64,000 nt of DNA, taken from assembly GCF_000026545.1 (NCBI RefSeq), contig NC_011601.1; one strand, written 5' to 3'. Below the pieces are notes generated by a model. The model did no database searches and had not been told where the DNA came from. It worked only from the letters and a program-made list of their open reading frames with translations. Of this stretch, positions 1,152 through 3,010 are shown one piece after another. Origin of the DNA: Escherichia coli O127:H6 str. E2348/69. Its GTDB lineage: Bacteria > Pseudomonadota > Gammaproteobacteria > Enterobacterales > Enterobacteriaceae. Position numbers and translations under genes: made by a program. Positions within the stretch are counted from its first letter, which is position 1, and each line of letters starts with the position of its first letter.

Positions 1152-1242
1152 ATGACAAACAAGGGCGCGCAAAATTAAGAATCTGCGCCCTTTCAAAGCC
1201 CGACAGGCGTAGCGCATCAGGCGATTTAGCGTCTGCCATCAG

Positions 1243-1662
1243 TCAAAGAAACCATTCCGGCTTAACGCCAAATCGGGCTGAAAGTGCCTTAATGTGGGAT
1301 ATCGTCAGGGATCGTTGTCCAGATAAAATCTGACTGACCAGGGATTTAGAGCCGATTTCGTTCTTCAAATCCGCATAGGTCAGATTATGTTGATCAATCA
1401 GCGTACGAAGTAACGCCACGCCAACCGACATTGCTGCAACGGCTTTGTCGAACTCTGCAAACTTTTCGTTATTGTTTTCATATTCTGCAATGCGGCTCGC
1501 CAGAAAGTCGATAAGTGGATTGGTGTCATCTTCTTCAATCAAATATTCGACCAGTTCCAGTGCTTCACGATAATCATCTTCTGAGTCACTGCCTCCCAGA
1601 AAGGGGACTGCATTGACCAGTTCTCTTGTTGCTTTAACAGCGCGTGCAGCATTAGCAGTCAT
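1243..1662 (-). CDS. higA: HigA-family antitoxin (XRE-type HTH at C-terminus), 139 aa
   Basis: C-terminal GSKSLVSQILSGQRSLTISHIKALSARFGV matches the HigA/YgjM HTH. It overlaps the upstream toxin gene by 4 bp, the typical toxin-first higBA arrangement. Confidence 0.8.
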   Translation of the reverse strand: MTANAARAVKATRELVNAVPFLGGSDSEDDYREALELVEYLIEEDDTNPLIDFLASRIAEYENNNEKFAEFDKAVAAMSVGVALLRTLIDQHNLTYADLKNEIGSKSLVSQILSGQRSLTISHIKALSARFGVKPEWFL

Positions 1663-1970
1663 TCTTTGTTCTCTCTGTAGTAACGTGTCAGTTTGTCATA
1701 CTCTGCGTGATTCGTGATGTGCTTCACAAAGAACCGCTTATTAACAAAGTTTATGTAGGCAATAACCCTAAGATTGTTCCCGCCGACATCCAGAACGTAC
1801 CATTTGTTGCGATATTTAAAATTGTCGAGGTTGGGAAAAGCCGTTCGCATTTCTTCTGGCGTAGAAAAATCCGTTTCCTTAATAACCCGATACAATGAGT
1901 GTAGAGCCAGAGCGTCGTTAGGATATTTGCGCGCACACTCTTCAAATGGCGCTTTCGAAATGATGTGCAT
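1659..1970 (-). CDS. higB: HigB-family mRNA interferase toxin (RelE/ParE superfamily), 103 aa
   Basis: MHIISKAPFEECARKYP...FPNLDNFKYRNKWYVLDVGGNNLRVIAY... is similar to E. coli HigB (YgjN). The start was moved to the internal ATG, which has an AAGGAAG ribosome-binding site; the six-frame ORF is N-terminally extended. Confidence 0.8.
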   Translation of the reverse strand: MHIISKAPFEECARKYPNDALALHSLYRVIKETDFSTPEEMRTAFPNLDNFKYRNKWYVLDVGGNNLRVIAYINFVNKRFFVKHITNHAEYDKLTRYYRENKE

Positions 1971-2051
1971 TTTAACTTCCTTATTAGCGCCTGAATGACT
2001 AAACCTGGACAACCATTCCTTGGGATTTATTTTTCTATAGTAGTTGATCAC

Positions 2052-2080
2052 ACGGGTGTTCACAATATGTAAACACCCGT
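2052..2080. promoter_or_regulatory. Perfect 9-bp inverted repeat (acgggtgtt-N11-aacacccgt) upstream of higB; candidate HigA operator
   Basis: Palindrome read directly from the sequence, about 80 bp upstream of the higB start in the higBA promoter region. Confidence 0.35.
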
Positions 2081-2136
2081 CTACACGTCACAATAGCACG
2101 TCCAAATTCCAAAACGTGAACATGTTTGTCTACGAA

Positions 2137-2607
2137 CTACTCTTCTTCCGCCGCTAACTGCGCGAAGCCGCCATTTCCTTCCCAGCCTTCCAGCCGCTGA
2201 TACACCGTTTCCACCGCATCTTTAATCTGCTGAGTCATCGGGTAGTAAAAGCCGACGATATCCGGCTGGATGCCAAGGAAAATCACTTCGCCAATATCTT
2301 CTTTCAACTGGTCGATAAGATAGTTCAGCGGCATGTTATGGGTAGTCATCATAAACATCTCGGCGATGTCAGCCGGGTCGATGATGCGGATCTCGCTAGG
2401 GTTTAGCCCCATATCCGTGGCGTCGACAATAAGCAGCCGTGTCGGGCGCAGTTCGCGGATAGCGACAATGTCGTTTTCCGGTGCGCTACCGCCGTCAATC
2501 ACTACCCAGTTACCTTTCGGCGCGGCAGCGCACTTTTCCGCCAGTAGCGGGCCTGCGCCATCATCGCCCATCATGCTATTGCCAACACAGAGTAAAACGT
2601 CAGTCAC
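2137..2607 (-). CDS. hycI: Hydrogenase 3 maturation endopeptidase HycI
   Basis: 156-aa [28 protein letters not shown]... matches HycI; last gene of the hyc operon. Confidence 0.95.
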   Translation of the reverse strand: MTDVLLCVGNSMMGDDGAGPLLAEKCAAAPKGNWVVIDGGSAPENDIVAIRELRPTRLLIVDATDMGLNPSEIRIIDPADIAEMFMMTTHNMPLNYLIDQLKEDIGEVIFLGIQPDIVGFYYPMTQQIKDAVETVYQRLEGWEGNGGFAQLAAEEE

Positions 2608-3010
2608 GCAGTCTCCTCACCATCAAATAGATGGCGTTTTCCTGATGAATATCATGCAGCATACTTAACAGCATTGTACTCCATTCCTTCTGCTGCGAAG
2701 TTTGCGCTGCCCGGGCTTTATCGAATGCGTTGGCCAGCATCGGCACATGGTTAATGTCGATGACGATCTCACCATATTTCGGCACGCCTTCCATTTTGCG
2801 GCGGGCTTCGCTGCCCGCCTCCAGAGTGGCAATCCATGCCAGATATTCATCCCACGGGCAGGTAAGCGCCGCTTCCAGGCAATCGATAACCCCAAGGTGG
2901 TGACCAATCGCCAGACTGTAATAGACCACCTGCTGCGCCTCGGCGGGCGTGGCATCGTTCTCATCAATAAATTTACGGCTCAGTTGACTGAACACCACCT
3001 TTTCACTCAT
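2600..3010 (-). CDS. hycH: Formate hydrogenlyase maturation protein HycH
   Basis: 136-aa ORF in hyc operon order, overlapping hycI by 8 nt. Confidence 0.92.

Follow-up and report, generated by a model that had tools for sequence, protein, structure and literature searches.

A palindrome upstream of the chromosomal higBA genes of Escherichia coli E2348/69 probably contains the operator of their antitoxin, HigA

The stretch of the E. coli O127:H6 E2348/69 chromosome that we analysed (64,000 nucleotides, hereafter the window) carries on its minus strand two overlapping genes of a toxin-antitoxin (TA) module. The leading gene, higB (1659..1970, with its ATG at 1970..1968), encodes a toxin of 103 amino acids that RefSeq lists as a HigB family toxin and that matches the Pfam model HigB_toxin (PF09907) with E = 3.8e-23 and 82 bits, against a cut-off of 27. 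It overlaps by 4 bp with higA (1243..1662), whose product of 139 amino acids, the antitoxin and a predicted repressor, has an HTH_3 domain at its C-terminus (residues 85-138). Residues 9-138 of HigA match the structures of K-12 HigA (5ifg, 6irp, 6jq4 and 5ycl; phmmer search of the PDB, E ~ 4e-34), and because the alignment to the solved protein is of this quality (best E = 3.5e-34, to 5ifg, with 46% identity in alignment A1) we regard the window HigA as a paralog of the K-12 protein, which is annotated in the MG1655 record as "antitoxin/DNA-binding transcriptional repressor". No NCBIfam model matched either HigB or HigA. Both genes are intact in E2348/69 and, with a HigB-fold toxin, a toxin-first and translationally coupled gene order and a K-12-like antitoxin with a C-terminal HTH-XRE domain, the pair belongs to the HigBA family by every feature that can be judged from sequence.

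Upstream of higB lies hycI, which ends at 2137 on the minus strand, and given the position of its stop codon the 166-bp spacer at 1971-2136 is all the intergenic DNA in which a higBA promoter could lie, as the initial annotation had supposed in calling this the only plausible promoter region. Downstream of higA are the tnpA gene of IS200C and a DUF4259 gene (62-571 and 723-1151; L001 2003-3972). E2348/69 is without the asc operon and has ISEc13 and IS200C between hydN and the DUF4259-higAB block; in other strains either the DUF4259 gene adjoins hydN with no IS elements between them (L002) or ascB adjoins higA (L003).

At 2052-2080, within the hycI-higB spacer and 82-110 bp ahead of the higB ATG, lies a 9-nt inverted repeat without mismatches, its arms separated by 11 nt; on the plus strand it reads ACGGGTGTT-CACAATATGTA-AACACCCGT. 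Its sequence and coordinates are exactly those initially reported, and the measured distance agrees with the earlier figure of about 80 bp. Complementarity extends inward from the 9-nt arms to give an extended palindrome (2052..2080) with arms of 13 nt (2052-2064 and 2068-2080) around a 3-nt centre, in which 12 of the 13 positions are paired; the single mismatch is C/A on the plus strand and becomes a G.U pair in minus-strand RNA. Is such a structure unusual? Inverted repeats with 9-nt arms alone and no more than 20 nt between them are not rare across the 64-kb window, where we counted 30 registers (about 14 sites) of perfect repeats with spacers of 0-20 compared to the 6.5 +/- 3.5 obtained in Markov-1 simulations. 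The form with 13-nt arms is rare (8 registers at 5 sites, with 0.4 registers expected), and 0.01 occurrences of the exact repeat pattern would be expected in the window even with up to 3 mismatches.

Inside the palindrome lies the 17-bp element that we consider the core operator, Op1, GTTTACA-TAT-TGTGAAC (2058..2074, minus strand), which has a 7-3-7 geometry, is at -104 relative to the higB ATG and is the predicted site of a HigA dimer. It is the single match to the core motif in the 64-kb window, where 0.02 are expected, and it is still the single match when 1 mismatch is allowed. The right half-site contains a putative -35 hexamer, TTGTGA (2060..2065, minus strand), in the register that TTGTAA occupies in 12 orthologs, and 17 bp downstream of it is a putative -10 hexamer, TACTAT (2037..2042, minus strand; offset 32-37 from the operator start), which is equivalent in register to the TATAGT, TATAAT or TATCAT of the orthologs and to the TATAGT of L002. 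A generic promoter scan did not call this putative promoter, because it agrees with the consensus at only 8 of 12 positions. The higB Shine-Dalgarno sequence, as read from the DNA, is AAGGAAG (1976..1982, minus strand), and it is conserved among the E. coli variants of the locus (A, B and C, described below). The leader also holds a short ORF, ATGGTTGTCCAGGTTTAG, at about 2012..1995. Further upstream on the minus strand are two fragments resembling operator halves, TATTGTGAC at 2087-2095 (an 8-nt direct repeat of the core, TCACAATA) and GTTCACG at 2115-2121, which may be remnants of another copy of the operator or weak auxiliary sites.

A first line of evidence that the core matters comes from other genera. 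We scanned one genome per species with a HigA alignment, which gave 30 loci, none of them from Salmonella, and extracted the 260 nt upstream of each higB. The orthologs examined whose HigB is 59-80% identical to that of the window all have two 17-bp palindromes, except for L014 (from a soil metagenome bin), which has just one, at -35. Those with two copies are from Leclercia (two), Mangrovibacter (three), Kluyvera genomosp. 3, a Kluyvera-like gut Enterobacteriaceae isolate, Yokenella, Citrobacter, Pluralibacter, a Fukatsuia plasmid and plasmid L004, which was recovered in E. coli and whose higBA has homologs on Klebsiella plasmids. In these orthologs Op1, GTTYACATATTGTAAAC, is at -73 and Op2, GTTYACATAATGTAAAC, is at -35 from the higB ATG, one on each side of the -10 box, and both follow the motif GTTYACA-N3-TGTAAAC, to which the window core is a perfect fit. 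Op1 and Op2 are exactly 38 bp apart, start to start, a spacing that implies a fixed register of elements: TTGTAA as the -35 within the right half-site of Op1, 17 bp of spacer, TATAGT, TATAAT or TATCAT as the -10, and then Op2. Mean column conservation across nine independent contexts is 0.97 for each operator and 0.87 for the -10, whereas the 40 nt upstream score 0.45 and the spacer scores 0.54. The HigA proteins of these systems (Leclercia, Kluyvera, Mangrovibacter, Citrobacter, Yokenella and plasmids) are mostly 74-81% identical to that of the window, a figure that falls to 67% for the endosymbionts Fukatsuia and Regiella. Their recognition helix is essentially the same, as are the half-sites and the -35/17-bp/-10 register. 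The differences are in operator number and leader length, with two operators and about 30 nt in the orthologs against a single operator, at -104, and about 60 nt in the window; in the right half-site, which is TGTGAAC in the window in place of TGTAAAC; and in the six extra complementary base pairs that flank the window core. Homologous higBA genes (about 70% nucleotide identity) are present on 536 plasmid records; Klebsiella pneumoniae accounts for 467, and the majority are large and non-mobilizable. Two metagenome-assembled contigs, L006 (labelled "Collinsella sp.") and L017 ("Citrobacter sp."), have a HigA with 98-99% identity to that of E. coli and are most likely misbinned E. coli sequence.

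Within E. coli we found higBA genes or their remnants in 2517 of 5426 complete genomes. The upstream region of the E2348/69 type, variant A, occurs in 343 E. coli chromosomes, and in the plasmid collection matches to it were confined to chromosome-sized E. coli records, with no genuine plasmid among them. In other strains, such as GN02323 (L002) and K71-77 (L003), an ORF of about 250 amino acids intervenes between hycI and higB and the sequence upstream of higB is different (variants B and C). A short-word BLAST comparison of variant A to variants B/C found only two common blocks in these otherwise unrelated regions, one at the Shine-Dalgarno sequence and the other a 19-nt island, GTGTTTACATATTGTGAAC (2058-2076, minus strand), which is 100% identical in both and is the only common block longer than 14 nt. 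This island, together with the 0.97 conservation of the operators against 0.45-0.54 for their flanks, constitutes the phylogenetic footprint expected of an antitoxin operator. The outer ACGG/CCGT is not part of what the variants have in common, and only the E2348/69-type allele has the outer 6 bp of the arms, which are absent from L002, L003 and all orthologs. A divergent form of variant A, in WL297 (L038), has 13 differences in the 166 nt, 2 of them in the palindrome; because the palindrome thus shows no depletion of differences, polymorphism within the allele is uninformative. One of the changes, C>T at core position 17, gives the same base as in the Op1 of a Fukatsuia ortholog.

Variants B/C retain signs of the two-operator arrangement, as a disrupted remnant of Op2 (GTTCCGAACATATAAGG) and an ancestral ATG are still recognisable ahead of an insertion of about 45 nt carrying a new Shine-Dalgarno sequence. 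The insertion (L002 3229-3275, minus strand) follows the ancestral higB ATG and creates a mini-ORF of 12 codons, MWLFTYYKEVKT*; as the mini-ORF stops 2 nt short of the present higB ATG and the new Shine-Dalgarno sequence falls within it, it may be a coupled leader peptide. The intervening ORF itself (L002 3391-4146, L003 3402-4163), found in many E. coli strains and absent from the window, encodes a hypothetical protein of 251-253 amino acids with a signal-peptide-like N-terminus (MCAFLLSLVLPAQATS...).

The window lacks Op2, since the 17-nt stretch that follows its -10 reads AGAAAAATAAATCCCAA where the orthologs have GTTYACATAATGTAAAC, so that the two-operator architecture is not found there, and repression may therefore be weaker or organised differently. 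Loss has gone considerably further in other strains, as more than half of the E. coli genomes with the locus keep only higA, the promoter, operator and higB having been deleted, and only 1099 of the 2517 cover at least 80% of the higBA query. In genomes with an orphan higA the matches cover only the query up to position 449 or 455, and in 2011C-4315 and MS7163 (L039 1900-2060 and L040 1900-2170, corresponding approximately to window 1690-2136) the orphan directly follows the 250-aa ORF or its remnant. In K-12 MG1655 the hycI-ascB spacer (L041 3400-3590) holds a scar, "cagggATGTtcTTGATGGGGTGAaccag", followed by REP-like sequence; since the scar joins the start and the end of the ORF of about 250 amino acids seen in L002 and L003, the ORF and higBA have been lost from K-12 by a clean deletion. 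These observations trace a stepwise decay of the module in E. coli, from loss of Op2, through loss of the promoter and toxin, to the complete deletion in K-12.

A second line of evidence comes from covariation between protein and DNA. In the K-12-type clade (K-12, other Escherichia species, Cedecea and others), whose HigA is about 46% identical to that of the window, the palindromes occupy the same two promoter positions as in the window clade and share its 7-3-7 geometry, but the half-site is GTTGCCA instead of GTTYACA. The K-12 module (ygjN/ygjM, b3083/b3082) has one operator on each side of TATCAT, GTTGCCA-ATC-TGGCAAC at -60 and ATTGCCA-ATT-TGTCAAC at -31. The recognition-helix region likewise differs in a consistent way, being SKSLVSQILSGQR in the window clade and SKSMVSRVL(S/N)GKRK in the K-12 clade (for the helix itself, SQILSGQRS in the window and SRVLSGKRK in K-12). 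The specificity of the site, that is, follows the recognition helix of the repressor, which is the pattern expected if the HTH of HigA reads the palindrome. Extensions of the symmetry also occur outside the window: K-12 Op1 (L005 4490-4520) is a perfect 12-3-12 palindrome, CATCCGTTGCCA-ATC-TGGCAACGGATG, and Op1 of L026 has 11-nt arms with different flanks (TTAA). In Cedecea (L025) one operator is the exact reverse complement of the other over 18 nt.

Taken together, these data lead us to propose, with a probability of about 0.8, that the palindrome contains the autoregulatory operator of this chromosomal higBA operon, a paralog of that of K-12, and that it is bound by HigA. A dyad-symmetric site is where such an operator should be, a 7-3-7 core inside a 13-3-13 palindrome in the hycI-higB spacer. 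The initial annotation had named the palindrome a candidate HigA operator; the position of the operator is upheld by conservation across contexts, by the fixed -35/-10 register and by the joint change of half-site and helix, but the conserved part is the inner 7-3-7 element and not the outer arms of the 9-N11-9 repeat, of which only GTT/AAC falls in the core, ACGG/CCGT being private to the E. coli allele. As to mechanism, a HigA dimer, either alone or as HigB-(HigA)2-HigB, would insert its two C-terminal HTH motifs into GTTTACA and TGTGAAC, and since the right half-site contains the putative -35, TTGTGA, HigA bound at the 17-bp core should cover the hexamer, exclude RNA polymerase and so repress higBA. 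The binding, the start of transcription and the repression are all predictions from sequence, which agree with the published behaviour of related antitoxins described below. Several points count against the operator model: the promoter is weak by consensus, the second operator of the family is missing from the window, the WL297 allele has a change at core position 17, and the model leaves unexplained the outer 6 bp of each arm, which are conserved in no ortholog.

If the palindrome is an operator, why are its arms so long? The window has six extra complementary pairs on each side of the core, whereas most orthologs have 0-1; elsewhere we saw +5 in K-12 Op1 (CATCC/GGATG), +4 in L026 (TTAA/TTAA) and +3 in L015. 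One answer is that the long hairpin, with its 13-bp stem, acts mainly as RNA, either as a 3' stabiliser or as an insulator, similar to a terminator, that separates higBA from the hyc operon. In the sense of a hycI read-through transcript, where it would lie 57 nt past the hycI stop, the minus-strand hairpin folds at -21.3 kcal/mol (z = -5.4) with the mismatch converted to G.U, while the plus strand reaches only -15.2 kcal/mol. The 13-bp extension, moreover, is found only in the allele in which higB directly follows hycI; variant B, with the intervening 250-aa ORF, has no stable hairpin (-5.6 kcal/mol, z = -0.2). The WL297 hairpin still folds at -17.5 kcal/mol, both of its substitutions being C>T in the right arm and preserving G.U pairing, but since about half of all transitions would be compatible with such pairing, two out of two is not significant. 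The stem also lacks the features of an intrinsic terminator, as there is no U-tract after it (GUGUGAUCAACUACUAUAG) and a terminator scan of the minus strand was empty, and for these reasons we keep a terminator only as a minor rival; in addition, Rfam gave no match at E <= 1 in window 1200-2700. The conserved 17-bp core alone forms no meaningful hairpin, and an RNA function leaves unexplained the two copies of the motif in the promoter register of the orthologs. An RNA role for the extended palindrome is accordingly possible and weakly indicated; that it is the main role is unlikely, and it could instead be a function added to the operator. The combined form of this idea is that the operator of this allele has been reshaped to serve two purposes, as a HigA site in a palindrome with a 13-bp stem whose stable RNA hairpin, at the 3' end of hyc read-through, insulates the toxin operon from the formate-hydrogenlyase operon. 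We offer this as a speculation that we consider unlikely; if it were true, the Op1 extensions of the K-12 clade (+5) and L026 (+4) would mean that extended palindromy, and not specific bases, has repeatedly been selected at the first operator of this HigA family.

Alternatively, do the extended arms, or even the whole palindrome, have any function at all? In E. coli, template switching at quasi-palindromes during replication is well established as a source of mutations that bring imperfect palindromes closer to perfection, and such a template-switch correction or another mutational bias could have produced the outer complementarity in a cassette that is decaying. The wide decay of the locus, with more than half of its bearers reduced to higA, the deletion scar in K-12, the lost or disrupted Op2 and the conservation of the outer arms in the E2348/69-type allele only would all fit that history. 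Against it, six contiguous extra pairs would arise by chance with a probability of about 4^-6, two upstream regions that otherwise show no relationship have the core at 100% identity, neither gene is disrupted in E2348/69, and Op1 has been extended independently, with different sequences, in the K-12 clade (+5) and L026 (+4), a recurrence that hints that longer palindromy is favoured. We think an absence of function quite improbable. Least credible of all is that the palindrome is the site of a host regulator such as CRP, FNR or LexA and not of HigA. On a reading of the sequence the TGTGA-like pentamers and the proximity of the FNR/FhlA-controlled hyc region might suggest one, but by eye the palindrome does not fit TGTGA-N6-TCACA (CRP), TTGAT-N4-ATCAA (FNR) or CTGT-N8-ACAG (LexA), and the motif travels with higBA into unrelated contexts and onto plasmids and changes with the HigA clade.

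If HigA binding at the core is as we propose, the outcome is a precise operator definition for a widespread HigBA subfamily, GTTYACA-N3-TGTRAAC, overlapping the -35. Because the K-12 HigA would use the same geometry with a different half-site, the two clades may also offer a natural system in which to study specificity switching in HTH antitoxins and the insulation of paralogous TA modules from one another.

How does this module compare to those already described? Among the closest known systems is that of K-12, which likewise has the toxin gene first, a 4-bp overlap and a HigA with an N-terminal dimerisation/toxin-binding domain and a C-terminal HTH, but it has two operators where the window has one, lies between rlmG and fadH and not between hycI and asc, and encodes a HigB only about 39% identical to that of the window. 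The HigBA-like SehA/SehB system of Salmonella Typhimurium, which we liken to that of the window from its published description, has in SehB an antitoxin of the K-12 HigA type with a C-terminal HTH, reported to be 46% identical to K-12 HigA. SehB is reported to bind its own promoter, in which two palindromes cover the -35 and -10, and thereby to repress the operon (PMC7160566; PMC3868539, the latter retracted). The HigA proteins of P. vulgaris (Rts1) and P. aeruginosa are HTH-XRE dimers that bind inverted repeats in their own promoters and autorepress (PMC6987408 and work cited there); they belong to a different subfamily, with about 100 amino acids and an N-terminal HTH, their operators are unrelated to that of the window (e.g., TTAAC GTTAA in P. 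aeruginosa), and the P. aeruginosa protein needs two cooperative dimers. The higBA of IncC plasmids, with a promoter of TTGAAT / TATATT and a putative SOS box (PMC8265657), is another system. A full-text literature search for the window-type and K-12-type operator sequences, and for higB together with hycI, found no paper. The predicted operator is thus of a known kind, that of antitoxin autoregulation, in a HigBA subfamily for which we did not find it described in the literature. We conclude that the higBA locus of E2348/69 is an ordinary case of a well-known form of regulation, and that the general view of autoregulation in type II TA modules is unchanged by it.
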